The notes below the pieces were generated by a model. It saw nothing but the letters and a program-made list of their open reading frames with translations. It was not told the origin of the DNA and did not search any database. Shown here in pieces: positions 7,407 to 62,212 of a DNA stretch of 64,000 nucleotides (positions within the stretch are counted from its first letter, which is position 1; each line of letters opens with the position of its first letter). This DNA is from Candidatus Omnitrophota bacterium. Its GTDB lineage: Bacteria; Omnitrophota; Gorgyraeia; Gygaellales; Profunditerraquicolaceae. Where the stretch lies: positions 62,871-126,870 of the forward strand of contig JBAZKC010000001.1 in NCBI GenBank assembly GCA_041651035.1. Direction: 5' to 3'. Position numbers and translations under genes: made by a program.

Positions 7407-7438
7407 TGGGGACGGTTCTATCAAAACAGAACTGTCCC
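7407..7438 (-). terminator. Terminator hairpin downstream of znuB (member of the GGGGACGGTTCT...AGAACyGTCCCC family)
   Basis: GGGGACGGTTCT-ATCAAAAC-AGAACTGTCCCC, followed on the minus strand by ATGTTTTTAC. Confidence 0.5.
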
Positions 7439-7447
7439 CTAGATTTA

Positions 7448-8296
7448 TCACCTATTCAACCGCCTTCCTAATAATGCCGAGACGCCATAACAACCTGCCG
7501 CGAAAAGAACGATTGTGGCTCCGGAAGCTGTACCCCAATAATACGATACGATCAGCCCTGTAACACCGGAAAATACGCTTATAATTACTGCTCCTTGAGT
7601 ATATGAATGGATATTACGCGCAAAGTTACGGCTTGCCGCAGCAGGCAAAACCAACAGCGAGTTTATGATCAAGATCCCCGCTAATCGTATTGATATCATT
7701 ACTACTAACGCCAAAAGTATAGTAAAACTTGTCTCTATGAGAAAAACATTTACCGCGCGGCTGCGCGCCAGAGACGAATTAACGCTGGTAAGTATCATGG
7801 CGTTGCCTGCCGCGTACCAATAGACCAGGACAACTATGGCTATTACTAAAAAACAGGCTATTTGCCGCGGGCTGACCGCGAGGATATCTCCGATCAAATA
7901 ACTTGTATATTTAGCAAACCCTCCCTGCCTGCTTAAAATAACAATCCCTAAAGCAACGATAAAAGCGAAAAGCACCCCTAAAACAGTATCTACAGAAGCG
8001 CGGGTCGTATCTTTTAATAGATTTATGGCAACTGCTAAAGCCACCGCTACGGCGATCATCGGCAGTGTTGGGTCCTGAATTCCTAATAGCACGCCTATCG
8101 CTATTCCCGTAAACGCGGAATGGCCTAATACATCGGTAAAGAAAGCCATGCGTTTGTTTACTACCATTGTCCCTAAAAGCGCGAAACACGGCGTGATAAG
8201 CAATACGGCTAAAAGCGCGTTCTTCATGAAAACATAGTGCGTCCAAGCAAACGGAAACATGTCTACTAATCTATACCAGAAATTAATCATGATCAT
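7448..8296 (-). CDS. znuB: Metal (Zn/Mn) ABC transporter permease (ZnuB/TroC family)
   Basis: 282 aa polytopic protein. Follows an ABC ATPase and a substrate-binding-protein gene, with a Fur-family regulator gene upstream. Confidence 0.75.
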   Translation of the reverse strand: MIMINFWYRLVDMFPFAWTHYVFMKNALLAVLLITPCFALLGTMVVNKRMAFFTDVLGHSAFTGIAIGVLLGIQDPTLPMIAVAVALAVAINLLKDTTRASVDTVLGVLFAFIVALGIVILSRQGGFAKYTSYLIGDILAVSPRQIACFLVIAIVVLVYWYAAGNAMILTSVNSSLARSRAVNVFLIETSFTILLALVVMISIRLAGILIINSLLVLPAAASRNFARNIHSYTQGAVIISVFSGVTGLIVSYYWGTASGATIVLFAAGCYGVSALLGRRLNR

Positions 8297-9068
8297 TTTT
8301 ACCGGCTTTTGAAGATTTTAGATTCGGCAAAAGAGAAACATTCCATAAGCTGGGGCCGAATGTTTTTACTAACTTTTCGTTTGAAAGGACTGCTTCGGGA
8401 TTCCCTTCTGCGATTACAGAACGGTCAAGAAGTATAAGCCGGTCAACGTAAGAAGATACCCCCGCTAAATCATGCGTAACCAATATCACCGCAATATCAT
8501 GTTTATTCCTTAGATCGTCTACAAGCTGATAAAAAAGAGAAAGCCCTTTAACATCTACTCCGCTGCCCGGTTCATCCAAAAGCAATAACGCGGGTCCCGG
8601 GGTCATGGCAATAGCAAGCAGTACGCGCTGCAATTCCCCTCCCGAGAGTTCTCCGATCCTTCTTTTAAGCAAATGTTCCGCCGCGAACAAAGATAAAATA
8701 CTCTTCACTCTTTCTAATAGATCCCTGTTAATTCCCATCCATACAGGATAAAAACTTATTGCCGAAACCACGAGGTCTGCTACGCTTATGGGAGAGCTAA
8801 AGTCAAATTGCAGTTTTTGGGGGACATAACCGATCTTAGGCTTTTTAGAGACGCTGCCGCTTATTTGAAATGCTATTCTGCCTTGATAAGGGACCTCTCC
8901 GAGGATCGTGCGTAATAAAGTGGTCTTACCGGCACCGTTCGGCCCCACTATCCCGACTACTTCCCCGCAATTCACATGCACATTGACATTATCGAGTATA
9001 GTATTTCCGCCTAATTTTACTTTCAAATTATCAATCTTCGTGCAGCAGTGCTTACAGGTATTACGCAA
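8283..9068 (-). CDS. znuC: Metal ABC transporter ATP-binding protein (ZnuC-like)
   Basis: Walker A GPNGAGKTT, ABC signature LSGGELQRV and Walker B LLLLDEP. Confidence 0.85.
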   Translation of the reverse strand: MRNTCKHCCTKIDNLKVKLGGNTILDNVNVHVNCGEVVGIVGPNGAGKTTLLRTILGEVPYQGRIAFQISGSVSKKPKIGYVPQKLQFDFSSPISVADLVVSAISFYPVWMGINRDLLERVKSILSLFAAEHLLKRRIGELSGGELQRVLLAIAMTPGPALLLLDEPGSGVDVKGLSLFYQLVDDLRNKHDIAVILVTHDLAGVSSYVDRLILLDRSVIAEGNPEAVLSNEKLVKTFGPSLWNVSLLPNLKSSKAGKNDHD

Positions 9069-9999
9069 AATAACTCTCCCTGCCTGCCGGCAGGCAGGCT
9101 TTTAAATCATTTTCAAATGCCTTCTTTAAAACAACCAGATTGTTTTCCATTATATTGATATACGCCTCACAATCATCCGGCCCGGTTACAGCGGGGTCAA
9201 GCACATATATTTTAGCGCCAGTTTCTTTGGCAATAGCACGGGCCGCTCCAGACGGATATTGCGGTTCGCTGAATAACGCCGGGATCTCGTTTTTCTTTAT
9301 AAGATCTATGGTTTCCGCGAGTTCTTTCGCGCTGGGCTCGCTTCCCGGTTCTCTTTCTACTACAGCCACAATATTCAGCCCGAATTCCCGGGCAAAATAA
9401 GGAAATGCCTCATGAAAAGTAATAACCGGCTTGCCTTTATACGGAGCCAGCTCCAAATGCATCTTCTGCCGCAATGCTTCAAGCTTTGCTATATAGATAC
9501 TGGTATTCTTTTCGTAGAGTTCTTTATGGTCAGGATCAAATCCTGCCATAGCCTTGCCAAAGTTTCCTGCCTGTATTATCGCGTTAGACACACTAACCCA
9601 CACATGTGGATTGCCGCCTTCATTCCCCTTACCTTTGATTAAAGGTATGCCTTCTGACAGCTGAATTACCTTTAAATCCGGATACTGCGCTATAACTTTT
9701 TCTAGAAAAGATTCCATCCCCGCTCCGTTAGCCGCAAAAATCCGCGCGTCAGCAAGTTTTTTCATGTCGTTGGCAGTGAGTGTATAATCATGCAAACAAC
9801 CGGTAAACGGCGGGGTAAGATTCTGGACCAATACCCCAGGCACATCTTTCGTAATATTCCTGGCTGTTATATACACCGGATAGAATGAACTGACGATTTT
9901 TATCCTGTCTGCCTCAGTCGCTTTCACGCTATTGATGCTGTATGGGCCAATCAGCAAAAATAATACTATTAAGAAAACCCTCAAGGAACCCTTACGCAT
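9061..9999 (-). CDS. znuA: Metal ABC transporter substrate-binding protein (ZnuA/TroA family)
   Basis: 312 aa with a signal peptide and His-rich metal site (CLHDYT, NPHVWVS). Confidence 0.75.
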   Translation of the reverse strand: MRKGSLRVFLIVLFLLIGPYSINSVKATEADRIKIVSSFYPVYITARNITKDVPGVLVQNLTPPFTGCLHDYTLTANDMKKLADARIFAANGAGMESFLEKVIAQYPDLKVIQLSEGIPLIKGKGNEGGNPHVWVSVSNAIIQAGNFGKAMAGFDPDHKELYEKNTSIYIAKLEALRQKMHLELAPYKGKPVITFHEAFPYFAREFGLNIVAVVEREPGSEPSAKELAETIDLIKKNEIPALFSEPQYPSGAARAIAKETGAKIYVLDPAVTGPDDCEAYINIMENNLVVLKKAFENDLKACLPAGRESYFA

Positions 10000-10019
10000 G
10001 GTTTTTGCCTATCGTGTAT

Positions 10020-10442
10020 TTACCTGCATACTGAACATAATCCTTCTATATGCAAGGAGTGCCGCTCAACATGCCCTTTTAATTTCTTTTCTATGAACCT
10101 GGAGATCTCTTGGAAATTACAAAACTTTACCTCTTCAACCTTATTACATTTCCTGCAGATAAAATGATGGTGGTCTTCATGCGGATTCTTACACAAGCTG
10201 TAATAAAGCTGCCGGTTCTTATGCTCAACTTTTACTAAAATCCCCGCTTTTTCCAATTCTTGCAGGATCCTGTAAACAGACGGCAGGCCCGCCTTAAGAG
10301 ATATTTTCTTAAGCATATCCCTTATTTCATAAGGCCCCAGGTACCTGCCCTTGTCCAAGAAAAGCTTTATAACCGCTTTTCTGCGGGGAGTTATCTTAAG
10401 GCGGCTTTCTTTTAATATCGATAGATAGTTATTGATGGGCAT
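10020..10442 (-). CDS. zur: Fur-family transcriptional regulator (probably Zur)
   Basis: 140 aa. HHHFICRKCNKV ... HSLHIEGLCSVCR (two CxxC pairs) and a winged-helix N-terminus. Heads the znuACB genes. Confidence 0.75.
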   Translation of the reverse strand: MPINNYLSILKESRLKITPRRKAVIKLFLDKGRYLGPYEIRDMLKKISLKAGLPSVYRILQELEKAGILVKVEHKNRQLYYSLCKNPHEDHHHFICRKCNKVEEVKFCNFQEISRFIEKKLKGHVERHSLHIEGLCSVCR

Positions 10443-10475
10443 GGTATAAATAGAAATGACTTCTATTTATACCAT
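10441..10475. promoter_or_regulatory. 15-bp perfect inverted repeat ATGGTATAAATAGAA-N5-TTCTATTTATACCAT overlapping the zur start codon (candidate Zur/Fur box)
   Basis: Perfect AT-rich 15/15 palindrome. The left arm includes the ATG of zur. Confidence 0.5.
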
Positions 10476-10514
10476 AAATAGCGGAATTTTGTCAAGAAGA
10501 TTACGGGTAAAAAA

Positions 10515-11183
10515 TCATGCTGACTTTTCAGGATGGTGTTTAACAACCTTGGCATTTACCATATAAATAACGTCTTCTGCGATATTGGTGGCATGATCGC
10601 AGATACGCTCAAGGTGACGGGCGATCAAAAGAAGCGGTACGGCACGCGACGCCGTAGATGGGTCTTTACTCATATAGTCCTGGATCAATTCTTTTTGGAC
10701 TAAATTACGCAGCCTGTCTGCTTCTTTATCAAGCAAAATAACTTTTCCCGCTAAATCAGCGTCCTTATTCACAAAAGAATCTATCGCGCATTTTACCATC
10801 TTTTGAGCAAGATCAGTTAATTTTGGGATATCTACTAACGGCTTAAGCATGGGCTTGCCCGTAAGCTCAAGAACCCGCTGGCCTATATCTACCGCCAAAT
10901 CCGCGATTCTTTCTAAATCCGTGGAAATCTTCATGGACATAGTGATAAAACGCAGGTCGGATGCCAAGGGCTGCCTAAGAGCTAATAAATCAAGGCACTG
11001 CTCGTCAATCGCGTTCTCCAACTCATCGATAGCTTTGTCATCTCTAACTACTTTCGTTGCTCTTTCTAAGTTAAGTTCTTTAAGTGCCTCTACTGACTCA
11101 AAAATCGCTGTTTCAGATAATGTTCCCATCTTAAGCAGCTGCTTCTTTAAATCAGTTAATTCTTGATCTAAATGTCTTTCCAC
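10515..11183 (-). CDS. phoU: Phosphate signaling complex protein PhoU
   Basis: 222 aa with two PhoU repeats (DxxxD motifs: ERIADLAVDIG / ERICDHATNIAEDV). Confidence 0.9.
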   Translation of the reverse strand: MERHLDQELTDLKKQLLKMGTLSETAIFESVEALKELNLERATKVVRDDKAIDELENAIDEQCLDLLALRQPLASDLRFITMSMKISTDLERIADLAVDIGQRVLELTGKPMLKPLVDIPKLTDLAQKMVKCAIDSFVNKDADLAGKVILLDKEADRLRNLVQKELIQDYMSKDPSTASRAVPLLLIARHLERICDHATNIAEDVIYMVNAKVVKHHPEKSA

Positions 11184-11184
11184 T

Positions 11185-11583
11185 TTAGGCCTCTTCCTTT
11201 ATAAAACTGGTTACTTTGTTTTTTATCTCGTCCCTGACCCTTCTGAAGAAATCTATATTTTTACCCTTAGGGTCTTCTATATTCCACTGGATATGTTTAT
11301 CCGCGGGCGCAAAAGGGCATATATCCTCACACCCCAGGGTAATTACATAATCAAATTTATTGATGGGGAGCTCGCTGAATCCTTTTGATTTCTGCCCAGA
11401 GATATCAATGCCAATTTCACGCATAACTTCTATCGCGCCCGGATCTACTTCTTGCGAAGGCTTTGAGCCGGCACTATAAGCCTCTAACACATCCGTGCCT
11501 ATATATTTTGCGAAACCCTCCGCGATCTGGCTTCGGCAGCTATTTTCAATACAAACAAAAAGGACTTTTTTCTTCTTTATCAT
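11185..11583 (-). CDS. arsC: Arsenate reductase ArsC (thioredoxin-coupled, LMW-PTP family)
   Basis: 132 aa. P-loop CIENSCRS (CX5R) and downstream TLGCEDIC Cys pair. Close pattern match to B. subtilis ArsC. Confidence 0.75.
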   Translation of the reverse strand: MIKKKKVLFVCIENSCRSQIAEGFAKYIGTDVLEAYSAGSKPSQEVDPGAIEVMREIGIDISGQKSKGFSELPINKFDYVITLGCEDICPFAPADKHIQWNIEDPKGKNIDFFRRVRDEIKNKVTSFIKEEA

Positions 11584-12344
11584 TATCCGAACCTCCCGGT
11601 AATATAAGCCTCGGTCTTTGGATCACTGGGCTTAGTAAATATATCCTGCGTCTTGCCAAATTCAATAAGCTCCCCCATCAAAAAGAATGCCGTATGATCT
11701 GAAACCCTGGCTGCCTGCTGCATATTATGCGTAACGATTACAATTGTGTATTCTCTCTTCAGCTCCGCGATAAGCTCTTCTATTTTAGCGGTAGATATGG
11801 GGTCAAGGCTCGCGCAGGGCTCATCAAACAAAATCACCTTAGATTCAATCGCCAGACTCCTGGCAATGCATAATCTCTGCTGTTGGCCGCCGGAAAGCTT
11901 TAAGGCGCTGTCGCCAAGCCTGTCCTTTACTTCCGGCCATAGTGCGGCTTTCTTCAATGACCACTCTACTTTTTCTTCAATAAATGGCCTGTCCTTGATC
12001 CCGTTTACCTTAAGGCCGTAGCTGATATTATCAAAAATGCTCTTGGGAAAAGGATTGGGCTTCTGAAAAACCATCCCCACCTGCCTTCTAATTTCAACGG
12101 CATCAACAGAAGGATCAAGAATATCCCTGCCGTCTAAATATATCTTACCACTAAGCGTAGTGTTAGGCACTAACTCATTCATGCGGTTTAATAGCCTTAT
12201 GAACGTGGATTTGCCGCATCCTGACGGCCCAATGATCGCCGTAACCTGATTCTTATAGACGTCCAGGTTTATATTTTTTAATGCCTGGGCCTTGCCGTAA
12301 AAGAAATCTACACTTTCTGACTTGATCTTTATCTCGCTATCCAT
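11583..12344 (-). CDS. pstB: Phosphate ABC transporter ATP-binding protein PstB
   Basis: 253 aa. [28 protein letters not shown]. Confidence 0.9.
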
Positions 12345-13185
12345 GAGTTCCTCTCTGTCTTTGCCGGATAAAAATAGCTATTCCTGAAATGATTAAAACC
12401 ATAGCTAAAAGAATGAGGCTTGAGCCATAAGCAATCGCCTTCTGCTTTGCCGGATGGGCTCCTTCAGTCATAAGGGCGTATATATGATAAGGCAATGCCA
12501 TAACTTCACTGAAAATGCTGTTTGGGTAACCACGTTTATAAAAGGCGGCGGCGGTAAAAAGGATCGGAGCGGTTTCCCCGGCTACCCTGCCGATACTTAA
12601 TATAACCCCGGTAAGTATGCCGGGTAAGGCTGTCGGTAAAACAATTCTCTTTATCGTCTGCCATTTGCTCGCCCCTAAGGAAAAAGAGGCTTCGCGTATT
12701 GAATGTGGAACGGCTATAAGGGCTTCCTGTGAAGCCGAGATAACCAGAGGAAGTGCTAAGATCCCCAGAGTAAGGCTGCCTGAAAGTATGGAAACTCCGA
12801 AACCGAAGAATTTGACAAACACCGCCAAACCAAAAAGGCCGAAAACAACCGAAGGAACTCCGGCAAGATTATTGATGCTGATACGGATAATATTGACCGC
12901 GATAGTTTTAGGAGAATATTCGCACAGGTATATAGCGCAGGCAAGGCCTAAGGGCACCGCAAAAAGCATTGAACCTAAGATTAAATAAAATGTGCCTACG
13001 ATGACCGGGGCGATCCCTCCTTCTGTCATGGCATTACGCGGCGCCTGGGTAAGGAAATCCCAGGAAATTACCTGTATCCCCCTGGTAAATATAAAATAAA
13101 TAATTATTCCCAGGAAGAAAAGAGTAATAAACATGCAAAGGAACAGAAAAAAGAACCCTGTATTCTGGATAATCTTTGCTTTCAT
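12337..13185 (-). CDS. pstA: Phosphate ABC transporter permease PstA
   Basis: 282 aa permease with an EAA-like loop. Confidence 0.85.
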
Positions 13186-14066
13186 CCGCTTAGCCCCAGC
13201 TTTATCCGGAACTTGCTCGATACAATTTCAGCAATAATATTAAAAACAAACGTAATCAGAAATAGAATAAGCGCGATAGCAAACAAGGCGTGATAATGCA
13301 AGCCTCCCATGGGCGCTTCTCCCATTTCCGCCGCAATTGCCGCTGTCATCGGACGTACCGGCTCTAAGAATGAGTGCGGTATTACTGCCGCGCCTCCGGC
13401 AACCATTAAGACAGTCATAGTTTCCCCTATCGCCCGGCTCATTCCTAAAATTACAGCCGTGGAAATCCCGGAGCCTGCCGCCGGTATTACCACTTGAGTC
13501 AAAGTCTGCCACCTGTTTGCTCCCACGGCAAAAGAGGCCTCCCGGAAAGAGCGCGGTACATAACTTAAAGCATCTTCGGCAATACTACAAACAGTAGGGG
13601 TCGCCATTATACCGAGTATCAGGCTTGCGTTTAAAGCGGTCATCCCGGTAGGAAGATTTAATATCTTCTGAATAAAAGGGGTAACTATAACCATACCGAA
13701 AAACCCGTAGACAACCGAGGGGATACTGGCCAGAAGCTCAATAAGCGGCTTTAAAAATTGCCTTTGCCGGAAACCTGCCAGTTCATTCAAATAAAGCGCG
13801 CTGCCTACGCCTAAAGGCACACAAACAAATATTGACCCTACAGTCACCCAGGCCGAAGCTAAAATCAAAGGAAGTATACCAAATTCCGGGGGGCTATAAG
13901 TGGGATACCATAACTTGCCAAAGAGAAAATCCTTAACGCTTATTTTTGAGAATATGGGCAGGCTCTCTTTAAAAAGGACAAAAACTATGCCCACCAAGAA
14001 TACCAATGAAGAAAAAGCAAGCATAGTAAATATCCATCTGTATAATTTTTCTTTTATACGGGGCAT
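13182..14066 (-). CDS. pstC: Phosphate ABC transporter permease PstC
   Basis: 294 aa permease. Order is pstS-pstC-pstA-pstB. Confidence 0.85.
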   Translation of the reverse strand: MPRIKEKLYRWIFTMLAFSSLVFLVGIVFVLFKESLPIFSKISVKDFLFGKLWYPTYSPPEFGILPLILASAWVTVGSIFVCVPLGVGSALYLNELAGFRQRQFLKPLIELLASIPSVVYGFFGMVIVTPFIQKILNLPTGMTALNASLILGIMATPTVCSIAEDALSYVPRSFREASFAVGANRWQTLTQVVIPAAGSGISTAVILGMSRAIGETMTVLMVAGGAAVIPHSFLEPVRPMTAAIAAEMGEAPMGGLHYHALFAIALILFLITFVFNIIAEIVSSKFRIKLGLSG

Positions 14067-14088
14067 AGCATCCTTTCTTAAAGGAGGT

Positions 14089-14113
14089 GCGGCAGGCTTA
14101 TTAAGCCTGCCGC
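14089..14113 (-). promoter_or_regulatory. Intercistronic stem-loop between pstS and pstC (GCGGCAGGCTT-ATT-AAGCCTGCCGC)
   Basis: Perfect 11-bp stem with a 3-nt loop and no trailing U-run. Its position resembles the processing/stability hairpins known in pst operons. Confidence 0.4.
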
Positions 14114-14138
14114 GTTGTCAGGTAATGAGTAAACGTTT

Positions 14139-15023
14139 TTATTTTAACCCGACATAACCTTGAGTCTCTACTAACTCCTGGCCTTTCTTACTTTTTACAA
14201 AATCAAGGTACTCTTTTGTAATCCCTTGGGGCTTGCCATTGGAATACATAAAGAGCGGACGAGTTACAGGATATTCCCCTGAAAGAACCGTATCCCTTGA
14301 AGGCATAACCCCGTCAATTTCAATAGGCTTAAGCTCTCCTGACATAAAACCTAACCCCACATAACCAATTGCCTGCGGAGTCTGGGCTATGATTTGGGCA
14401 ACAGCCTGATTTGAAGCTTGCATCAAAGCTCCAGGCATAACTTTTTCCCCCTTCATAACCAATTCCCCAAAAGCCTCAAAAGTTCCGCTGGAAGTATCGC
14501 GGGAAACAACCACTATCTTGCCGGGGCTACCCCCTAATTGAGACCAATCAGAGATTTTCCCGGTAAAAATATCCCGGGCCTGCTTCTTAGAAAGCTTGAA
14601 TATTGAATTGGACTTATTTACCACTACCGCAATACCGTCCATAGCCACGATATGGGCAACAGGATCCCTTCCGTTTACGGCTGCCTTTTGTATTTCCGTA
14701 TCTTTTATCGGCCGGGACGCGTCGGCTATATCGCAAGTCCCGTCAATAAGGGCGGCAATGCCTACGCTTGAGCCGCCTCCGCGCACGGATATATCCGCGC
14801 TCGGATTATTATCCATAAAGACCTCGGCGGTCTTCTGGGCTATAGGAAGCACGGTCGTAGAACCAGCCAAAACAACCTTTTCCGCATAACATGGAATAGC
14901 TAGGCCTAAACCTAATATTCCTATCAGCGCCAACATTCCCAATCTTTTCATTTTATCTCTCCTTATTATTTTATTACTACGCCAATATTCAAGCCCCGCC
15001 CGGAAAACGCCGGGCGAGGCCAT
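14139..15023 (-). CDS. pstS: Phosphate ABC transporter substrate-binding protein PstS
   Basis: 294 aa. Signal peptide and a PBP fold with STTV, SRDTSSGT and GSGAG-like phosphate-binding segments. Confidence 0.85.
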   Translation of the reverse strand: MASPGVFRAGLEYWRSNKIIRRDKMKRLGMLALIGILGLGLAIPCYAEKVVLAGSTTVLPIAQKTAEVFMDNNPSADISVRGGGSSVGIAALIDGTCDIADASRPIKDTEIQKAAVNGRDPVAHIVAMDGIAVVVNKSNSIFKLSKKQARDIFTGKISDWSQLGGSPGKIVVVSRDTSSGTFEAFGELVMKGEKVMPGALMQASNQAVAQIIAQTPQAIGYVGLGFMSGELKPIEIDGVMPSRDTVLSGEYPVTRPLFMYSNGKPQGITKEYLDFVKSKKGQELVETQGYVGLK

Positions 15024-15036
15024 TATTAATTAATGG

Positions 15037-16323: not shown

Positions 16324-16409
16324 TCCCTACCTCCTTCTTTGTTATAGTTACGAATCATCTCTACCTTATTAATTACTGGCTGCGCTTTATTAATTTTTAC
16401 CCCCCTTTC

Positions 16410-16862
16410 TTAAATAGGCCTGCGTATGCCCCCTCCTCCGGGGGTTTGCACAATATAATCCTTATCCCGTATCACGGCTAATTCCTTAATGGTCTCCATT
16501 AAACCCCTCACGTTAAAAGGTTTGGTAATATACTGATCCGCCCCTACGAGATTGCCGTAGATTTTATCCTGGGACTCGGCCTTGGCAGTTAGGATGACCA
16601 CAAACGTCTTAAAAGCAGCCCGATTTTCCTTAATGGATTTACAAATATGGAATCCGTCAACGCCCGGGAGCATAATATCAAGGACCACTATATCGAAAAC
16701 CTCCTTGGCGAGCCTATCTTGCGCCGTAAACCCATCATAAACGGATTCCGAACTAAAACCATTCTTAGAAAGGTTGTAGGAAATGAGCCTGTTAATGCTC
16801 TTGTCGTCTTCAACGACCATTATTCTTTTTTGTTTTTTTACTGCTTCCTTATCAGTCATCAT
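16410..16862 (-). CDS. Single-domain response regulator (CheY-like receiver)
   Basis: 150 aa. DD acid pocket, phospho-acceptor D in VLDIMLPGVDG, and K in ITKPF. Confidence 0.7.
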   Translation of the reverse strand: MMTDKEAVKKQKRIMVVEDDKSINRLISYNLSKNGFSSESVYDGFTAQDRLAKEVFDIVVLDIMLPGVDGFHICKSIKENRAAFKTFVVILTAKAESQDKIYGNLVGADQYITKPFNVRGLMETIKELAVIRDKDYIVQTPGGGGIRRPI

Positions 16863-17082: not shown

Positions 17083-17120
17083 AAAAGGACGGCTCTGTTA
17101 AGACAGAACCGTCCTTTTTA
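17083..17120 (-). terminator. Rho-independent terminator downstream of phoR (GGACGGCTCTG-TTAAGA-CAGAACCGTCC + T-run)
   Basis: 10/11-bp stem flanked by A-run and T-run. Same hairpin family as 7407-7438. Confidence 0.55.
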
Positions 17121-43814: not shown

Positions 43815-43838
43815 TTTATAACCAGCTTCTGATCTTAT

Positions 43839-44090
43839 TTATTCGGATTTACTTAAACCCGATTTTACTGAAACTCCGGCAATTTTACCGAGCTTACCGG
43901 TTAATGAGCCCAATTCATCAGTAGTAGTATCCACGATCAAAACAATAACACTTAACTCTTTCTTAACATGCGGGATGCCCATACGTCCGATAATTAATCC
44001 GGAAAATTCGGTAAGGATATTGTTTATGAGCGGTGCCGCTTTCTTACGATTATGAATAATAATTCCTACGAAACCTAAACGCTTTTCCAT
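43839..44090 (-). CDS. TM1266-like small ACT-fold protein (putative iron-only hydrogenase system regulator)
   Basis: 83 aa. GFVGIIIHNR...RMGIP...VIVLIVD...LTGKLGKIAGVSVK pattern. Sits between hydA and hydG, as is typical for this family. Confidence 0.6.
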   Translation of the reverse strand: MEKRLGFVGIIIHNRKKAAPLINNILTEFSGLIIGRMGIPHVKKELSVIVLIVDTTTDELGSLTGKLGKIAGVSVKSGLSKSE

Positions 44091-44139
44091 ATTACCTCCC
44101 GATGCCCCGCGCTAATAAGCACCTTGCCTAAATACGTAC

Positions 44140-44190
44140 ACAAAAAATTCCAACCCGCTGTTGAATAAATCCTAGAGAAAGGTTGGAATT
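44140..44190 (-). terminator. Terminator downstream of hydA (10-bp perfect stem AATTCCAACC/GGTTGGAATT, 25-nt loop, then T6)
   Basis: Hairpin followed by TTTTTTG on the minus strand. Separates hydCBA from the maturase genes. Confidence 0.5.
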
Positions 44191-44306
44191 CATTTCTTAC
44201 CTCCCTTAGGCTTAGATCTTTTAATCCTTACCGCAGGATGCTAAATTATATTACCCACCACTAAAGTATCGACAGTCCGCTAAAGTCCAGCGGCGAGCAT
44301 TTGCAA

Positions 44307-54275: not shown

Positions 54276-54910
54276 TTTTTTGTTACTTTAGTCTTTTCGA
54301 TGATATTAACGAAATAAATAAGATTCTCCAGCTCTATCTCAAGATTTACATTATTTATAACGCAGCCTTCTTTCTCTTTTAACTTTATAGGGGCAAAATT
54401 CAATATACCCTTTATGCCTCCGGAGATCATTTCATCCGCTACCGACTGAGCTCCTGCTTCCGGCACAGCGATAATACCAACCTTAATGTTCTGCTTTTTA
54501 ATAAACTCCTTAATGTCCTCCAGTGCCAAAACAGGGATATCCGCCTCAGGATTCAATTTAGCCGGATCATTATCAAAACAAGCGACGATCCTAATGCCTT
54601 CTTTTTCAAAACCTTTGTATTTTATTAAAGCGGTACCCAGTTTTCCTTTGCCAGCCAGAATAACCTTTTGCACCTCGTTCTTGCCGAGGATGTTATTCAT
54701 CTTGTCCAGTAATTCTTCTATTTTATAACCGCCTCTCTTATTGCCGGAAAGGCCGAAAATAGAAAAATCTTTCCTGACCTGGGAAGATGTTACATCAATG
54801 GCATCGGCGAGATTATCCGAGAAAACTTTTACAAATCCTAAGTCTTTCAAGCGATAAAGCGCGTTTTTATACCGGGATAGCCTTATAATGCAGTTTTTGT
54901 TTGTGATCAT
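54272..54910 (-). CDS. rex: Redox-sensing transcriptional repressor Rex
   Basis: 212 aa. N-terminal wHTH (RLSRYKNALYRL) and a Rossmann GKGKLG NADH-binding domain. Confidence 0.85.
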   Translation of the reverse strand: MITNKNCIIRLSRYKNALYRLKDLGFVKVFSDNLADAIDVTSSQVRKDFSIFGLSGNKRGGYKIEELLDKMNNILGKNEVQKVILAGKGKLGTALIKYKGFEKEGIRIVACFDNDPAKLNPEADIPVLALEDIKEFIKKQNIKVGIIAVPEAGAQSVADEMISGGIKGILNFAPIKLKEKEGCVINNVNLEIELENLIYFVNIIEKTKVTKN

Positions 54911-54911
54911 A

Positions 54912-54929
54912 TTGTTATTTTTTTCACAA
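54912..54929. promoter_or_regulatory. Rex-box-like palindrome TTGTTAT-TTTT-TTCACAA immediately upstream of the rex ATG
   Basis: Matches the 18-bp TTGTGAA-N4-TTCACAA Rex consensus at 16 of 18 positions. Confidence 0.5.
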
Positions 54930-54973
54930 TATATTTTAATTATAACGTCAGCTATATTTTTGTCAAGGATTTT

Positions 54974-54991
54974 TTGTGATTTATTTCACAA
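54974..54991. promoter_or_regulatory. Rex-box palindrome TTGTGAT-TTAT-TTCACAA
   Basis: Matches the Rex consensus at 17 of 18 positions. Lies 64-81 bp upstream of the rex start. Confidence 0.6.
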
Positions 54992-55017
54992 TAAGTAAAA
55001 ATGAACTTATTCATTTA

Positions 55018-55533
55018 TTACGCTCCTTTTTGTAGAAATGATAGCAATGATTGTATGATTACCAGCGGGCTTGGCGGGCACCCCGGAATATGTAATACCA
55101 CCGGTAATATATTTCCTACCGCGCCTTCGACATAATAAGAATCTTTAAAAATCCCGCCATTTAACGCACAGTCTCCGGCGGTAATAACAAATTTGGGCTC
55201 AGGCATGGATTCGTAAGTCTTTTTTAACGCCAGGCACATATTCTTAGATACGGGGCCGGTAACCAAAAGCGCGTCTGCGTGGCGCGGAGAAGCAACGAAA
55301 TTTATCCCGAACCGCCCTAGATCGTAAATAGGGTTATTCGCCGCGGCGATCTCCGATTCACAGGCTCCGCAAGAACCGGAATCTAGCTGGCGTATATGCA
55401 AAGACCTGCCGAATCTTTTCCGGATCAAAAGCTTCAATTCCGGTCCGGCTGATTCTATCTGGCGGGATAATCCCGGCTCAATATGCCTGGTTACAACGCC
55501 TTTTAATATCCTATTCCTTAATATATGTATCAT
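55018..55533 (-). CDS. NuoB / group-4 hydrogenase small-subunit-like protein (proximal 4Fe-4S Cys retained)
   Basis: 171 aa. SCGAC...GDCALNGG...IPGCPP. Confidence 0.75.
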   Translation of the reverse strand: MIHILRNRILKGVVTRHIEPGLSRQIESAGPELKLLIRKRFGRSLHIRQLDSGSCGACESEIAAANNPIYDLGRFGINFVASPRHADALLVTGPVSKNMCLALKKTYESMPEPKFVITAGDCALNGGIFKDSYYVEGAVGNILPVVLHIPGCPPSPLVIIQSLLSFLQKGA

Positions 55534-55536
55534 ATT

Positions 55537-57114
55537 TTATAGGTCATTGCCTGAATACGACAGATCAAAACTCTTATTGCAAAGCGGAAAATCCGGGATT
55601 ATGTTTCCTAATACAGCGTAAGATAACCCCTGCCAATTAAAAAAAGAAGGGTCTACAACTTTACACCGCCTGATCTGCCCCGTGGGATCTGTCTTAAGCC
55701 AATATAAAACAGGACCCCTCCATCCTTCCGAGTAACCCAGAGCACTTCCTCCTCTTGGCTTTAATTCAGAAGTAATTTCTCCGTCCTTATTAAGCTTGCG
55801 CGCGAACTCTTCAATTAAACGGCAGGATTCTTCAAATTCCAGGACCCTGATCCGCAGCCTCGCTAAAACATCTCCTGATTCTTGTAAGGCCATTTTGAAT
55901 CCAGCTTCCTTGTACACCCCGGAAAAATATTTTCTTAAGTCCATAGGAATGCCGCAGGCACGGGCGGAAAGTCCGACTGCTCCCAGGTCTTCAGCTGTTT
56001 TCCTACGCAACAGGCCTGTAGTATCTACCCTATCCATAAAAGAAACACTGGAATAGAGTATCTTGGTTAATTCGCTAAAGTCCTTCTTTAGGCTCTTAAG
56101 AGACCTCAAAAGCATTTGTTTCTTAGTTTCATCTATGCCTGTTAAAACTCCTCCTACTGTATTAACATTTTTAAGGTACCTGCTCCCGGTAAGCTTATCG
56201 TTTAACTGGAGCATACTTTCCTTAATAATAGAGGCGTAGGCGGCCGGAAAACTAAACCCTACGTCAAGGGCGATGCCGCCGATATCGTTTACATGATTAT
56301 ACATGCGTTCCAGCTCAAGAAAGATAGCTCTTAAATAAGCGGCTTGCGCGGGAACCGATACTCCGAAGATCTTCTCTGCTGCCTGAGTAAACGCCAGGCT
56401 GTGCGCGAAACTTGAATCTCCTGACACGCATTCTGATAGCCTTACCGCGTTACGGCAAGGCTTGCCTTCAAATATCTTTTCTACCCCTCTATGGGTAAAA
56501 CCTAAGCGGATCTCTAAATTTATTATCGGCTCTCCGGCGACGCTAAAGCGGAAATGCCCGGGCCCGATAATACCGGCATGCACCGGGCCAACAGGGACTT
56601 CAAATACTCCCACTCCTTCAACCCTATCAAACTTATATTCGCTTAACTGCCCGGGATCCATTTTCTGAAAATCCTTGCGCAAAGGAAAATTATCCGGCGG
56701 GCAAACTTCATCATGCAGGCGCAGCCGCCTTAGATCGGGATTACCTTTAGGCTCAATACCGAACATCTCCCGTATCTCTCGCTCGAAAAGGCTGGCTGAA
56801 TATACGCTTTTAGCCAGCGAATCAAAACAAGGATCATCCTGCGGAATATCCATACTGACAATGATCCACTGGCTTTTTTTCAAATTCAAGAATACGGAAT
56901 TGATTACGAACTTAGCCGAATCCCCGCGTTCATCACAGGCAAACAGCATCATTACCGAAGAAGGAAGTATTTTATGCAGTAAAAGACAGGTGTCTTTGAA
57001 ATCCTGCGCCCTTACCTTAATGGTTATTTCATCAGGGTAATCCCGCGAAACCGAAAGCGCGTTAAAACCGGGAATTTTATTTTTTATACCGGCAATAACT
57101 TCTGAGCTATCCAT
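55537..57114 (-). CDS. NuoC-NuoD fusion / HycE-HyfG-like large subunit lacking the C-terminal [NiFe] CxxC (Ehr-like)
   Basis: 525 aa. N-terminal NuoC-like (~150 aa) plus a NuoD/[NiFe]-large-subunit fold. N-motif region RLSECVSGDSSFAHS has a single Cys. The C-terminus reads VVDPSFFNW where hydrogenases have DPCxxC. Confidence 0.7.
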   Translation of the reverse strand: MDSSEVIAGIKNKIPGFNALSVSRDYPDEITIKVRAQDFKDTCLLLHKILPSSVMMLFACDERGDSAKFVINSVFLNLKKSQWIIVSMDIPQDDPCFDSLAKSVYSASLFEREIREMFGIEPKGNPDLRRLRLHDEVCPPDNFPLRKDFQKMDPGQLSEYKFDRVEGVGVFEVPVGPVHAGIIGPGHFRFSVAGEPIINLEIRLGFTHRGVEKIFEGKPCRNAVRLSECVSGDSSFAHSLAFTQAAEKIFGVSVPAQAAYLRAIFLELERMYNHVNDIGGIALDVGFSFPAAYASIIKESMLQLNDKLTGSRYLKNVNTVGGVLTGIDETKKQMLLRSLKSLKKDFSELTKILYSSVSFMDRVDTTGLLRRKTAEDLGAVGLSARACGIPMDLRKYFSGVYKEAGFKMALQESGDVLARLRIRVLEFEESCRLIEEFARKLNKDGEITSELKPRGGSALGYSEGWRGPVLYWLKTDPTGQIRRCKVVDPSFFNWQGLSYAVLGNIIPDFPLCNKSFDLSYSGNDL

Positions 57115-58541
57115 AATATATCCTTTTTTATAAACGGAAATACGATCCCTAAAGCCAAGGTGAGAGAAAACAAGAATAAAAATGCCAGTTTCCCGCTTAA
57201 CGGCTCCCCTGTTATAGCCATAGCCTTGGGAAGGTTACCAAAAAGCATCTTTCCGAAATGATAAATGAATGCCCCGAAAATAACCGACAGAAATAATAAT
57301 AACAGGGCGGCTGTTAAGTATGAACCGTTAGTGAACGCGGAAATAACGATCAATATCTCGCTTACGAATATGGCAAACGGCACAAACCCTGTAAGCGCAA
57401 ATACCCCCATCAATACCATAACGCCCGTAAACGGCATTGCCTCAATTACTCCCCTGATAGCGTTCATATTATGTTTCTTATATGCGCTGACAATATTACC
57501 CGCCCCGAAGAACATAATCGACTTAGCCACAGCGTGATTAAGGACATGCATGGCCGCCCCGGCAATGGCCAAAGGCGAACCCAGGCCAAAACCGATGACA
57601 ATTATTCCGACGTGTTCAATGCTGCTGTAGGCAAGAAGGCGTTTTAAATCTTTTTGGACCAGGATAAATCCGCAGGATATAACCAAAGAAACTAAACCCA
57701 GCAAGGTCATCAAATGCGCAAAATACGCGAAACCCACGCCCTTGATTACGATAATGCCAAACCTTAAAATGGCGTAGATAGCCGTCTTTAACAAGACGCC
57801 GGAAAGCAACGCACTTATCGGAGCGACTGCCTGACTGTGGGCATCGGGTAACCAGGTGTGCATCGGCGCAAGGCCTGCCTTTGTCCCGTATCCGACAAGG
57901 ACAAAGATAAAGGCGATTTTCAGGATATTTTTATCCAATATGTGCGCGACAGGAACCATATCTGACCAATTCAAACTCTTAGACAAGCCGGAAATTGAAA
58001 AAGCGTAGGAAAAAAGGATCGTCCCTAAAAGTGCCAGGATTATACCCGCTGAGCAAATAATAATATATTTCCAGGCGGCCTCGACTGATTCCTTGGAATT
58101 ATAAAACCCTACCAGGAATGCAGAAATAAGCGTAGTCATTTCAATAGCCGCCCAAAGCATGCCTAAATTATTAAGCGCGGGGACAAATAGCATAGAAAAA
58201 CAGAATAGATTAAAAAGAACATAATAAACTTTCGCCTTCTTTTCGGATACCATTCCTTTATGGATATCCTTATTGATGTAGCCGATAGAATAAAGCGCGG
58301 CGGCAAAGGCTACTACGGAAATAACAAAAATAAAAAAAACGCTTAAGACATCCAGATATATAAAATTACCGCATAGTTTAAGGCTTCCTGATAATACTAT
58401 ATTCCTAAAAAGCAGAATAGCCTCGGACAGCACAACCAGGTACCCCAGACTATTGGCTACCCCATAAACCTTCTGTTTCTTAATAAACAGCGCGGCTAAT
58501 GCGAGTAAAACAGGGATACTCAAGATAACGAATATCTGCAT
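57084..58541 (-). CDS. NuoM/N-MrpD-like antiporter-type membrane subunit (HyfF-like)
   Basis: 485 aa. GTKAGLAPMHTWLPDAHSQA motif. Confidence 0.8.
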   Translation of the reverse strand: MQIFVILSIPVLLALAALFIKKQKVYGVANSLGYLVVLSEAILLFRNIVLSGSLKLCGNFIYLDVLSVFFIFVISVVAFAAALYSIGYINKDIHKGMVSEKKAKVYYVLFNLFCFSMLFVPALNNLGMLWAAIEMTTLISAFLVGFYNSKESVEAAWKYIIICSAGIILALLGTILFSYAFSISGLSKSLNWSDMVPVAHILDKNILKIAFIFVLVGYGTKAGLAPMHTWLPDAHSQAVAPISALLSGVLLKTAIYAILRFGIIVIKGVGFAYFAHLMTLLGLVSLVISCGFILVQKDLKRLLAYSSIEHVGIIVIGFGLGSPLAIAGAAMHVLNHAVAKSIMFFGAGNIVSAYKKHNMNAIRGVIEAMPFTGVMVLMGVFALTGFVPFAIFVSEILIVISAFTNGSYLTAALLLLFLSVIFGAFIYHFGKMLFGNLPKAMAITGEPLSGKLAFLFLFSLTLALGIVFPFIKKDILWIAQKLLPV

Positions 58542-58545
58542 AAAA

Positions 58546-59178
58546 TTATCCTTTCAAACGCGAAAGCTTATTTACGTCAATATGCGTAAAGAGCTTGTTA
58601 ATCCTGTAGACAAACAAACCCATAATGATTACACTGACGAATACATCCAGAAATATGGCGATCTCTACAAAAAACGGCATGCCTCCTGAAACAAACGAAG
58701 CAAACAAAAATACCCCGTTTTCCATTACCAAAAGCCCGGTTACCTGGGTAAAAGCCTTCATACGCGATACCATGAGAAAGGCTCCGATAAGAATCACGGA
58801 AAAAGCTACTGTAATGGCGGCCAATCTGTAATCACGGCTAAAACCTAAAGCCCCGGAGAAGATCCATGAGAGATAAGTAAGTATGAATGCTACGAGTAGT
58901 GAAAGCTGCGCGTTGACAAAAAGGCCAAGGCCCTGGTCTACGCTTATCTTTTTGGCTACCTGGCTTAAAACACGGGGTATTATTAAAACTTTTAGAAGCA
59001 AAATGAGCAGGGCGATAAAACATAGATCCACCTGCTTTTCCGCAAATCCGGTAAATAAGGTTGCCAGAAAAATAAAAAACGACTGGTAACGGAAACTGCG
59101 TATCAGCGCCGGCACCCTTTTGGCGATAACCATAAGGTATGTCGTGATTAAAACTCCAAATAGGATCACCTCTCTCAT
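58546..59178 (-). CDS. HyfE-like small membrane subunit
   Basis: 210 aa, ~6 TM. Its position within the Hyf-like gene order supports the call. Confidence 0.5.
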   Translation of the reverse strand: MREVILFGVLITTYLMVIAKRVPALIRSFRYQSFFIFLATLFTGFAEKQVDLCFIALLILLLKVLIIPRVLSQVAKKISVDQGLGLFVNAQLSLLVAFILTYLSWIFSGALGFSRDYRLAAITVAFSVILIGAFLMVSRMKAFTQVTGLLVMENGVFLFASFVSGGMPFFVEIAIFLDVFVSVIIMGLFVYRINKLFTHIDVNKLSRLKG

Positions 59179-59179
59179 A

Positions 59180-60100
59180 TTAAACTCCCAGTACCGCGCA
59201 TACTACCGCGATAACTCCTAATATAAAAGCAAAACCCAGGAAATCGGCTACCCGGAATAACCGCATCTTTGCTACCGTTACTTCTACCAGGGCCACCGCG
59301 GCTGCTATAATGATTATTCTGATTAAATACCATAAAACCCAGAGAGCCGATTGTACCGGACCGCTGATAGCCGGCAAGCCGATAGGAAAGATTACCTGCG
59401 CGATCAAAAAGAATAAAACCATCTGTTTTATATAGGAAGCCGCTTCTATAATAGCAAGTGACCTGCCTGAATACTCCAAAACCATCGCCTCATGCACCAT
59501 GGTCAACTCAAGATGCGTTTCCTGGTTATCCACCGGCACACGGGAAGTTTCCGCTAGAGTAACAAGGAATAATGTTGCTGAGGCGGCAAAGGAAGAAACC
59601 GATACCGGATGCATGCCGCTAAAAGCCGTAATATCCGTAGAGCCGAATTCTAAAGACAACGAGAATATTGCCAAACAAAGCGCCGGCTCAACCAGGCTTG
59701 AGATAAACATTTCTCTGGATGAGCCCATCCCACCAAAAGCGCTTCCAGTGTCTAGCGCCGCAAGCGCCAGGAAGAAACGGCCTAAGGCAAAAATAAATAT
59801 CAAAACCAGGAAATCACCGATGTGGAGCGCGGGACTGGAGAAAATGAATACCGGGATAAATAAAGCAGCGGCCAGTGAAGAAGAAAATACCACAAAAGGG
59901 GTTACCCTGAATATCCAGGAGGCAGTATCTGAGACTACTTCTCCTTTTGAAAAAAACTTAGCTAAATTATAATAAGGCTGAAAAACACTCTGGCCTTTAC
60001 GCATCCTGATATTATTCTTTATCCTGGTGATCAGGCCGCTTAAAAGCGGGGCTAACCCGATAAATAAAATCAATTGTGAAATAAACAATACGATCTTCAT
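59180..60100 (-). CDS. NuoH/HycD/HyfC-like membrane subunit
   Basis: 306 aa with a conserved RxxxGQSVFQPY-like loop. Confidence 0.75.
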   Translation of the reverse strand: MKIVLFISQLILFIGLAPLLSGLITRIKNNIRMRKGQSVFQPYYNLAKFFSKGEVVSDTASWIFRVTPFVVFSSSLAAALFIPVFIFSSPALHIGDFLVLIFIFALGRFFLALAALDTGSAFGGMGSSREMFISSLVEPALCLAIFSLSLEFGSTDITAFSGMHPVSVSSFAASATLFLVTLAETSRVPVDNQETHLELTMVHEAMVLEYSGRSLAIIEAASYIKQMVLFFLIAQVIFPIGLPAISGPVQSALWVLWYLIRIIIIAAAVALVEVTVAKMRLFRVADFLGFAFILGVIAVVCAVLGV

Positions 60101-60104
60101 TTTC

Positions 60105-62012
60105 TTAAAAATTACGCATAAATATTATCAATAATAACACCGTAACAAAAATATACCCCAGATACAGATGGATACTGCCCGGCTGGATCCTTCTCATAGA
60201 CTTCGCTGTCTTAAAAACCAAAGCAAGCATAGGATCATAAATATATTTCTTAAATACCTTTGTCGTATGCGTCTCATAGGTAAAAGATTTGACATGGTAA
60301 AACGATTCTCTTACCTTTTGCGTCCGGCGGTAAGGCAGCAAGAAGAAACTAAAGGCGATCCTGAATGGTTTTGAAAAAGCCGTCGCGGTGTATTCGTTAC
60401 GCGGGCCTGTTTTATAGTAACCACAGTCCCAGGTCTTATATATTACCGCCTTTCTCCTGCTGAATAACTTATATATCATAAAACCCGACAGCCCCAACAG
60501 GACCAAAATTAACCCCAGCAAAGGCATAGAAAGATAAATACCTTTTCCTGTCTGCGGGCTTAAGGTAAAGTTATTGACAGAAAAATTCATCTTACTGATA
60601 TCTAACCCCGCAGCCGCACCTGCGACTTTTGCCAATAATTTTACGATTCTTACGGCGGCCAATCCGAAAATAACGGTCAAAAACGACAAGAAAAACATGC
60701 CTGCTTTCATGGATAAAGAAACTTCTTTTGCGTCTTTGGCATAATGGCTTCGAGGCTGAGCCAGGAAGGTTATTCCGAAGGCCTTTACAAAACAGGCAGC
60801 GGCCAAGCCGCTGGTTAAAGCCAGCATTGCCGCGCATATCCCCAGAAAAAGCTTAACCCCTCCTGTTACGTTAAGAGCTCCCAAAAAGAACGCCTGTAAA
60901 GTCAACCATTCGCTTACAAAACCATTAAGGGGCGGAAGAGCAGAAATCGCCATCGCGCCTAATAAAAAATACACCGCTGTCTGCGGCATTTTCTTAATCA
61001 ACCCCCCTAACTTTTCCATATCGCGGGTCCCGGTGGCCTTATATACGCTGCCGGCGCACAAAAACAGGAGTCCTTTAAAAATGGCGTGATTTATTAAATG
61101 ATACAAACCGGCGATCAAAGAAAAAACGGCTAAATAAGGCAACTTCAGGCTGATAAAAAACATTGCCAGCCCTACCCCTAACAAAATTATTCCAATATTT
61201 TCTACGCTGTGATACGCGAGCAGCCTTTTGATATCATGTTCCATAAGCGCATAAATTACTCCTACCAGGCAAGAAATCACCGCAAGGATCAGGATTAAAA
61301 CTCCCCACCAGGAAGAATTTACGCCGAGAATAAAGATCACAAACCGGATTATTCCGTAAATGGCAGTTTTGATCATTACGCCCGACATAATACTGGAAAT
61401 ATGGCTCGGCGCCTGTGGATGGGCGTAGGGCAACCAGATATGCAAAGGCACGACGCCGGCTTTAGTCCCGAATCCGGTCAAGAGCAATAAAAATACGGTG
61501 TTTTTAGTTCCCAGGGGCATGGTTTGGCAGGCATTCTTTATCGCCAGATAATCAAAAGAACCCGAGTATCTATACATGATCAGGAACGCGGCTGTTAAGA
61601 AAGCAGTGCCGATGTGCGTCATTACGATATAAATCATGCCCGCGTTTATGGATTTCTCGTGTTTTGTATCAAATACCACCAGAAAATAGGAAACCAGAGA
61701 CATGATCTCCCAGAACACCAGGAAAGCCAGGACATTGTTTGTAGTAACTACCAACGCCATGGACAATACAAAGACAAACAATAAAAACCAGGCAAGTATT
61801 ATTTTGGCAGGCGGATAGTGGCTATCTTCTGCCGCGGGAGGATTACCCTTCGGCGAAAAGTAACCAATAGAGTAAACAGCAGATGGCAGAGAAATAACGC
61901 AGATCACAAAAAGGAAGAATAAGGAAAGCGGATCAAATAAAAAGAATTGTTTTCCCGGGATATCCATCATTAAAACCCAAAGGCCATATAAAAAGTAAAA
62001 AACCTTCATCAA
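60105..62012 (-). CDS. NuoL/HyfB-like antiporter-type membrane subunit
   Basis: 635 aa. GTKAGVVPLHIWLPYAHPQAPSHIS motif. Confidence 0.8.
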   Translation of the reverse strand: MMKVFYFLYGLWVLMMDIPGKQFFLFDPLSLFFLFVICVISLPSAVYSIGYFSPKGNPPAAEDSHYPPAKIILAWFLLFVFVLSMALVVTTNNVLAFLVFWEIMSLVSYFLVVFDTKHEKSINAGMIYIVMTHIGTAFLTAAFLIMYRYSGSFDYLAIKNACQTMPLGTKNTVFLLLLTGFGTKAGVVPLHIWLPYAHPQAPSHISSIMSGVMIKTAIYGIIRFVIFILGVNSSWWGVLILILAVISCLVGVIYALMEHDIKRLLAYHSVENIGIILLGVGLAMFFISLKLPYLAVFSLIAGLYHLINHAIFKGLLFLCAGSVYKATGTRDMEKLGGLIKKMPQTAVYFLLGAMAISALPPLNGFVSEWLTLQAFFLGALNVTGGVKLFLGICAAMLALTSGLAAACFVKAFGITFLAQPRSHYAKDAKEVSLSMKAGMFFLSFLTVIFGLAAVRIVKLLAKVAGAAAGLDISKMNFSVNNFTLSPQTGKGIYLSMPLLGLILVLLGLSGFMIYKLFSRRKAVIYKTWDCGYYKTGPRNEYTATAFSKPFRIAFSFFLLPYRRTQKVRESFYHVKSFTYETHTTKVFKKYIYDPMLALVFKTAKSMRRIQPGSIHLYLGYIFVTVLLLIIFMRNF

Positions 62013-62156
62013 CTGATAAGCTCAGCTAACAAAGGTTTCTCGTTATTTTTAGTCCAGACCCACCTTTAAACTCGGGACTATTTTATTATGGTTATATGCT
62101 ACCACTTCCTCCAGCTGGAATCAAGAATAAAATCAGGGACGCTTCTTGACCCAATC

Positions 62157-62212
62157 GGGGGACGTTTCTTCAGCTAAAGCCTGCCTGCCGGCAGGCAGGC
62201 GAGATCTGTCCC
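62157..62212 (-). terminator. Composite hairpin element: GGGGACGTTTCT ... [22-bp perfect palindrome GCCTGCCTGCCGGCAGGCAGGC] ... AGATCTGTCCCC
   Basis: The outer arms match the 7407-7438 hairpin family. The embedded GC palindrome (62179-62200) also occurs at 9079-9098. Located downstream of the 62213-62632 gene. Confidence 0.45.

Follow-up and report, generated by a model that had tools for sequence, protein, structure and literature searches.

Three short hairpins with near-identical arms lie outside genes in a 64-kb stretch of a Candidatus Omnitrophota genome (contig JBAZKC010000001.1, positions 62,871 to 126,870; we refer to the whole of this stretch as the window). We consider that they are probably non-autonomous derivatives, akin to repetitive extragenic palindromes (REPs) and REPINs, of the terminal repeats of an element encoding a group 1 REP-associated tyrosine transposase (RAYT), also described as TIRYT or TnpA-Y1 subclass 2.1. 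It is because an 11-12-base core shared by the hairpins marks both ends of a widespread family of IS200-like (RAYT/TIRYT) transposase genes that we take the window hairpins to be small REP-like mobile-element derivatives; this link was seen in other genomes rather than in the source genome. An earlier note on this DNA had described three near-identical hairpins, all of which are present in the window sequence, and had suggested that they represent mobile or templated REP-like elements with a possible role in protein recognition. That suggestion is supported by the occurrence of the core in many phyla, by its strongly intergenic placement and by its position as inverted terminal copies flanking a Y1 transposase gene. 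If correct, this would explain why unrelated operons of this Omnitrophota genome share a hairpin, which would reflect a common transposase-associated repeat origin and not independent evolution.

The core at the ends of Y1 transposase genes

Recurrent neighbours of the hairpin were sought by all-against-all BLAST of the open reading frames (ORFs) in loci from the genome scan for the hairpin that is described below. One specific family was found, a protein of ~250 residues present in five genomes, which matches Pfam Y1_Tnp (E 2e-16) and whose best NCBIfam match is the REP-associated tyrosine transposase (REP_Tyr_transpos), at 54-70 bits and hence under the 80-bit cut-off. The alignment of these proteins contains the HUH motif NHVH (LMxNHVHL), the motif GHLFQDRF, the catalytic-tyrosine motif RYIHQNP (YIHxNP) and a C-terminal helix-turn-helix (HTH) domain, the last giving weak matches to HTH_3/HTH_23. 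Palindromes flank the transposase gene on both sides in Oribacterium (L018) and in Lachnospiraceae RUG12082 (L099). A profile search over all fetched ORFs returned only the five known transposases, and a database search with the transposase alignment gave solely Clostridia-type names among the top 120 matches.

An independent test was made with 80 metagenome loci that were picked by the transposase alignment alone, with no DNA motif used. In these loci GGGACGGTTCT occurs 69 times and its complement AGAACCGTCCC 75 times, allowing up to one mismatch, where ~3 of each would be expected. Upstream of the transposase gene the core is found in 36 of 73 loci and the complement in 7, downstream the complement is found in 34 of 66 loci and the core in 8, and the two occur together in this arrangement in 25 of the 60 loci with both flanks available. 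The two gene ends are inverted repeats of each other, and the core is identical between the window hairpins and these transposase-flanking ends.

At the gene ends the 11-mer is unpaired and forms the loop between short, mutually complementary arms which differ between genomes, as in the example ggagacag-GGGACGGTTCT-ctgtctcc ... gene ... ggagacag-AGAACCGTCCC-ctgtctcc. When 141 distinct ends were compared, the bases at flanking positions 3-7 paired in 71-81% of them, and all six pair types were represented; the figures were 37-51% for shuffled controls and 13-43% when the register was shifted by one base. Since the pairing of the flanks exceeds both controls, we regard each end as a hairpin in which the stem covaries and the loop is conserved. 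Together, the conservation of the core across phyla and its placement in a hairpin loop make it a concrete candidate for the DNA signal of group 1 RAYT/TIRYT enzymes. A bolder version of this proposal is that the hairpin-loop 11-mer GGGACGGTTCT serves the largest RAYT class (group 1, subclass 2.1) as its cognate DNA signal, nearly unchanged across more than 10 phyla, and that Omnitrophota retain inverted dimers of it as hairpins at gene ends, perhaps with no transposase resident in the genome. We put this forward tentatively and consider it rather unlikely in its entirety, but if it were true, the inverted dimers in Omnitrophota would amount to domestication of the repeat as terminators.

The three hairpins in the Omnitrophota window

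The window hairpins have the arms GGGGACGGTTCT / AGAACYGTCCCC in common and lie at 7408-7439 (site 1), 17087-17114 (site 2) and 62158-62213 (site 3). All three are extragenic, giving three sites per 64 kb, and the operons that precede them are unrelated, being concerned with zinc uptake and phosphate signalling at the first two and comprising a hypothetical gene at the third. The elements are 28-56 bp in length and none is flanked by a direct repeat, whilst the feet of the hairpins read CATG/CTAG at site 1, AAAA at site 2 and TTAG/CGAT at site 3.

Site 1 is an inverted core dimer, to which no strand is assigned, made up of GGGGACGGTTCT (7408-7419), an 8-nt spacer ATCAAAAC and AGAACTGTCCCC (7428-7439); the hairpin that the earlier note placed here exists, but its coordinates had been set one base too low. 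Read on the sense (-) strand it is GGGGACAGTTCT...AGAACCGTCCCC, with one A.C mismatch in the stem, followed by AUGUUUUUAC. An ABC-3 (ZnuB-type) permease gene, whose stop is at 7448, lies on one side of it and the nikR start, at 7339, on the other, and it is 11 nt upstream of a TTGACA that precedes nikR. Its left flank AAAAACATG recurs without change as the outer arm of a copy in another Omnitrophota metagenome-assembled genome (MAG; L021:5927). Site 2 is a core dimer on the - strand, GGACGGCTCTG-TTAAGA-CAGAACCGTCC, which extends to 17083-17118 when its A/T flanks are included and lies directly 3' of a PhoR-like histidine kinase gene; the outer GG/CC that belongs to the family consensus is missing here. 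Site 3, again without an assigned strand, is a degenerate core dimer in which 32 nt lie between the arms GGGGACGTTTCT (62158-69) and AGATCTGTCCCC (62202-13), and these arms pair with two mismatches and one wobble. Its final C overlaps the TAG stop of a 139-residue ORF (62213-62632), and a solitary extra core, GGGACGCTTCT (62136-62146, + strand), is found in direct orientation 22 nt upstream of its left arm. Site 3 looks like an old, decaying copy that has acquired a second palindrome in its interior.

The core is clearly enriched in the window, where GGGACRGTTCT occurs seven times at up to one mismatch against 0.94 expected, a number reached in none of 100 shuffles. Six of these seven cores fall in the three sites, the solitary copy at 62136-62146 being counted among the six, and no matches to the gapped arm pattern are expected from shuffled window sequence.

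The earlier note had also presented the hairpins as terminators, and here the sites differ. Predicted RNA folds of the sense (-) strand have energies of -20.1 kcal/mol (z -4.4) at site 1, -29.5 kcal/mol (z -8.2) at site 2 and -37.5 kcal/mol, with a z of only -2.2, at site 3, and a terminator scan of the window reported site 2 alone among the three. With a 16-bp stem on the - strand, a 4-nt loop and then UUUUGUUUUU, site 2 is a canonical intrinsic terminator as judged by its sequence, and the claim fits it cleanly. At site 1 the claim holds in part, the stem being mismatched and the tail being AUGUUUUUAC, and it fails at site 3, which has no U-tract. From these features, an RNA hairpin that would end or protect transcripts is certainly predicted at site 2 and possibly at site 1, but probably not at site 3.

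Occurrence in other genomes

The pattern GGACRGYTCT-N4-12-AGARCYGTCC was scanned over 185,579 species genomes and gave at least 119 matching stretches. The same stem was found in many phyla and mostly between genes. Unless a wider scope is given, the counts and hosts in this section are those among the matches listed. A single variant, GGACGGTTCT/AGAACCGTCC, accounts for 102 of 132 distinct sites, whilst the three other perfectly pairing variants that the pattern allows account for 4, 4 and 0 sites. Position -1 is G in 120 of the 132 sites and position +1 is C in 119, and because these two bases dominate, the conserved unit can be extended to RGGGACGGTTCT ... AGAACCGTCCCY.

Many of the hosts are Clostridia, including Oribacterium and Lachnospiraceae, and further hosts are Planctomycetales-labelled MAGs, Bacteroidales, Actinomycetota, Chloroflexota, Thermodesulfobacteriota, Nitrospirales, Elusimicrobia and Peregrinibacteria. 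The hairpin is present in at least 17 different Omnitrophota MAGs, one of which carries it at least seven times in the fetched loci, and carriage can be dense, as in Oribacterium NK2B42 (L018) with six copies per 8 kb. The NikR encoded in the window is 100% identical to a protein of an Omnitrophota MAG, in keeping with how common the hairpin is in that group. Intergenic sites make up 126 of 145 (87%), compared with an ORF coverage of 81% of the loci. The gene context is tandem in 58 cases and convergent in 21, against 11 divergent, and NNGG and NTAG are the usual feet of the hairpins.

Several Omnitrophota and Planctomycetales-labelled MAGs (L028, L036, L061, L096, L104) also carry a REPIN-like long hairpin of ~80 nt, consisting of two inverted copies of the unit and arranged as GGGACGGTTCTCAA - variable - AGAACTGTCCCC - loop - GGGACAC.TT - variable - TTGAGAACCGTCCC. 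The variable segments of this form show compensatory changes, and folding is possible into one long hairpin or into two short ones.

A number of searches returned nothing that could be related to the hairpin. BLAST of the consensus hairpin against annotated plasmid and phage collections gave chance partial matches only, and because the matches were at chance level, the hairpin does not appear to be a plasmid or phage feature in those collections. Rfam 15 had no match at the gathering score in the window or in four repeat-rich loci, a permissive Rfam search around site 1 gave chance-level matches only, and full-text literature searches with core strings turned up unrelated primers only.

Some individual loci have further features of their own. 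In Lachnospiraceae RUG12082 (L099; 1520-1640 and 2415-2500) a long palindrome carries GGGACG four to five times per arm at ~10-11 nt spacing, and because this spacing is about one helical turn, it suggests that several protein units are bound side by side. The outer arm of the Oribacterium repeat (L018; 780-835 and 1735-1785), TTATCCACC, matches the DnaA-box consensus TTATCCACA at 8 of 9 positions, and this DnaA-box-like arm directly adjoins the conserved core. In the Planctomycetales-labelled MAG L104 (~2300-2400), a hairpin copy is followed by an ORF closely similar to a small, unlisted ORF of the window, MEKRLGFVGIIIHNRKKAAPLINNIL..., which lies within an 'intergenic' region at 43815-44306 (- strand).

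Relationship to known repeats and transposases

Three published studies describe a system which closely resembles the one considered here. TIRtrons are tyrosine-transposase (TIRYT) genes flanked by terminal inverted repeats that share GGGGWSAS, and their repeats are also dispersed at moderate abundance as singles, dimers and clusters (Di Nocera, De Gregorio and Rocco 2013, PMC3733652). The TnpA-Y1 subclass 2.1 of Quentin et al. (2018, PMC6006769), which these authors equate with Bertels' RAYT group 1 and Di Nocera's TIRYT, is defined by NHVH, FQ and Y[IV]HxNP, a median length of 238 residues and a C-terminal Bac_DnaA_C or HTH_23/28-like domain; the C-terminal domain, they note, resembles DnaA domain IV, and they saw no DnaA-box-like target. 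RAYT group 1 has been found in 21 bacterial classes, Clostridia among them, and the 16-mers that flank its genes occur ~12 times per replicon (Bertels et al. 2017, PMC5581495).

The hairpin-linked transposase has the same features as those reported for TIRYT, being a Y1 enzyme of ~240 residues with NHVH, FQ and YIHxNP and a C-terminal HTH. Its gene likewise lies between inverted repeats that start GGGG(A/T)(C/G)A(C/G), and the repeats again occur as singles, dimers and clusters at moderate abundance. The system is widely and patchily distributed, with Clostridia among the hosts. On the - strand, sites 1 and 3 have the sequence GGGGACAG and fit GGGGWSAS. There are also differences, since the commonest core here, GGGGACGGTTCT, extends beyond the published 8-mer and has a different base at position 7, and no transposase was found in the present 64-kb window. 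Within the available portions of PMC3733652, PMC6006769 and PMC5581495, the covarying hairpin-loop placement of the core at gene ends is not stated and Omnitrophota are not found as a host. The loop-in-hairpin structure and the longer conserved core therefore add detail to the TIRYT picture, and do not constitute a new category.

Canonical REP/REPIN-RAYT systems (E. coli and Pseudomonas; RAYT groups 2 and 3) resemble the present family in being short extragenic palindromes, whose inverted doublets fold into a longer hairpin, and in flanking a single Y1 transposase gene in inverted orientation. They too lie mostly downstream of genes and have been proposed as terminators or mRNA stabilisers. 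In contrast to these, the present family has no GT[AG]G tetranucleotide at the hairpin foot, its conserved part is shared across phyla instead of being species-specific, and its transposase is of a different subclass, with an HTH tail. IS200/IS605 elements, with their subterminal hairpins and palindrome-only derivatives, share the HUH/Y1 chemistry and have ends that are small DNA hairpins recognised on single strands, but those ends are not mutual inverted repeats, and the TnpA of ~150 residues without HTH and the often-carried tnpB were not seen here.

Various other types of element were considered and rejected. A miniature inverted-repeat transposable element needs 70-300 bp, terminal inverted repeats of 15-30 bp and a target-site duplication, against the 28-56 bp and absence of direct repeats in the window elements. 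CRISPR repeats are ruled out by the spacing, a tRNA-like minihelix by loops that are not T-loop-like and domain V of a group II intron by the reversed strand order, whilst the terminal repeats of IS6 or Tn3 differ in sequence and a sigma-54 promoter does not fit.

Alternative explanations

Several observations weigh against a transposase-associated origin and need to be considered alongside the evidence for it. Neither tblastn nor a profile search found a Y1 transposase gene in the window or in any fetched Omnitrophota locus, and three related Omnitrophota loci of 20 kb have no copy of the repeat, with one other having a single core. Upstream of nikR, synteny is lost in the relatives whose NikR is 80-85% identical, which leaves no empty site for comparison. 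The commonest cross-genome core, GGGGACGG, departs from GGGGWSAS at one position, and Quentin et al. report (PMC6006769) that no REP-like sequences were found adjoining subclass 2.1 genes. Finally, site 2, without the outer GG/CC, might simply be an ordinary terminator whose likeness to the family is fortuitous.

All three sites might be independent intrinsic terminators whose stems are alike by chance or because each has converged on stable, GC-rich pairing. In favour of this are the textbook terminator at site 2, the U-rich tail of site 1 and the U- or A-rich flanks of about one third of the copies elsewhere, among the matches listed. Like Rho-independent terminators, the window hairpins have a GC-rich stem and a short loop, with an operon-end U-tract at site 2, but such terminators have no family-wide conserved sequence, whereas the window family has one, and sites 1 and 3 have no good U-tract. 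We think this explanation very unlikely in view of the excess of the core in the window (7 against 0.94 expected), the poor stem of site 3 and, in the listed matches, the preference of ~25 to 1 across phyla for one variant over equally stable ones. The unpaired state of the same 11-mer in the hairpin loops that border transposase genes speaks against it too.

A host-functional RNA hairpin, acting for example as a 3'-end stabiliser or as the site of a conserved RNA-binding protein, with the sequence kept for the sake of the host and the transposase genes merely located among such hairpins, would account for the position of copies after genes in tandem or convergent contexts, for the stable RNA folds and for the compensatory changes in the longer Omnitrophota versions. 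It is nonetheless unlikely, as the arrangement of core to the left and complement to the right of transposase genes is symmetric as DNA but represents two different RNA sequences, no Rfam family matches, and the sense strand of site 1 has an A.C mismatch even though G.U would be available on the other strand. The two inverted half-sites of 10-12 bp could alternatively be read as a double-stranded DNA operator for a dimeric transcription factor, a suggestion to which the HTH domain of the associated transposases and the location of site 1 beside the nikR promoter region, 11 nt upstream of the TTGACA, might lend weight. A half-site spacing that ranges from 4 to 32 nt or more, the unrelated operons preceding the sites and the copies that follow nearly every gene in some genomes (L018, six per 8 kb) are difficult to reconcile with an operator, and of the explanations weighed here we give this one the least credence.

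Possible origin and function of the short hairpins

The full element, as seen in other genomes, consists of a ~250-residue HUH/Y1 transposase gene between inverted ends, each of them a small hairpin with a 6-9-bp stem that differs by genome and a loop that is GGGACGGTTCT at the left end and the complement AGAACCGTCCC at the right end. In the short form, the two loop sequences stand inverted a few bases apart and so pair with each other in a stem of 11-15 bp. Joining of the two element ends, with loss of the interior, would give exactly the short form seen at the three window sites, and this matches a route suggested for double-foot REPs by Quentin et al. (PMC6006769), namely 'central deletion between an inverted dimer'.

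The group 1 RAYT/TIRYT enzyme may recognise the GGGACGGTTCT loop on single-stranded DNA, by analogy with other HUH/Y1 enzymes; hairpin recognition on single-stranded DNA is established for IS608 TnpA and for the TnpA-REP of E. coli (cited in PMC6006769). The HTH of the transposase could possibly recognise the duplex beside this loop. Recombination between ends might then yield dimers made of ends only, which would be copied or retained, and a Y1 transposase may spread or maintain copies of the core. Such dimers would be expected to accumulate downstream of genes, where the harm is least. As RNA they would form stems of 11-16 bp which may terminate transcription if a U-tract follows, or protect 3' ends. 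Tolerance of the copies in positions downstream of genes, together with the ability of stable RNA hairpins to end or protect transcripts, may be why they persist there.

Other repeats and features of the window

The interior of site 3 contains a perfect 22-bp palindrome, GCCTGCCTGCCGGCAGGCAGGC (62179-62200, no strand assigned). The earlier note had taken the loop of this hairpin to be replaced by the palindrome, and this does not stand, as the interior merely contains a copy of a separate, dispersed palindrome. A second copy, with a 20-bp perfect core (9079-9098, no strand assigned), lies in the last 12 codons of a ZnuA-type gene (9061-9999), where it encodes ...ACLPAGRE.... The 20-mer, CCTGCCTGCCGGCAGGCAGG, is identical in two other contigs (L019:3193-3212 and L204:20360-20379), one of which is from an Omnitrophota-like relative with a NikR that is 83% identical. 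The GC palindrome is a member of a second dispersed repeat family. Repeats of this sort matter for the annotation of uncultured genomes, where they break assemblies, give rise to false ORFs or to spurious C-terminal tails, of which the ZnuA-type gene is an example, and may pass for regulatory sites.

There is also a third hairpin family, the 27-nt CACCGGCCTATCCGATAAGGCCGGGTG, which is present in three exact copies at 58-84 (+), 3053-3079 (-) and 3805-3831 (-). The copies are all intergenic and within the first 4 kb of the window, and their stem has one bulged G. The Logan contig L001, from the same strain, ends inside this repeat, as would be expected if it is multi-copy in the genome.

More generally, all of the long ORFs in the window, which has a GC content of ~44%, are on the - strand, and the GC skew is uniformly negative at -0.09 to -0.22. 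Given this shared orientation and uniform skew, the window fits within one replichore with very strong gene co-orientation. At 10441-10475 there is a perfect 15-bp inverted repeat, ATGGTATAAATAGAA-N5-TTCTATTTATACCAT, immediately upstream of, and overlapping the start of, a Fur-family gene (10020-10442) that heads the zinc-uptake genes, and this inverted repeat is probably a Zur/Fur operator, as predicted from its sequence and position.

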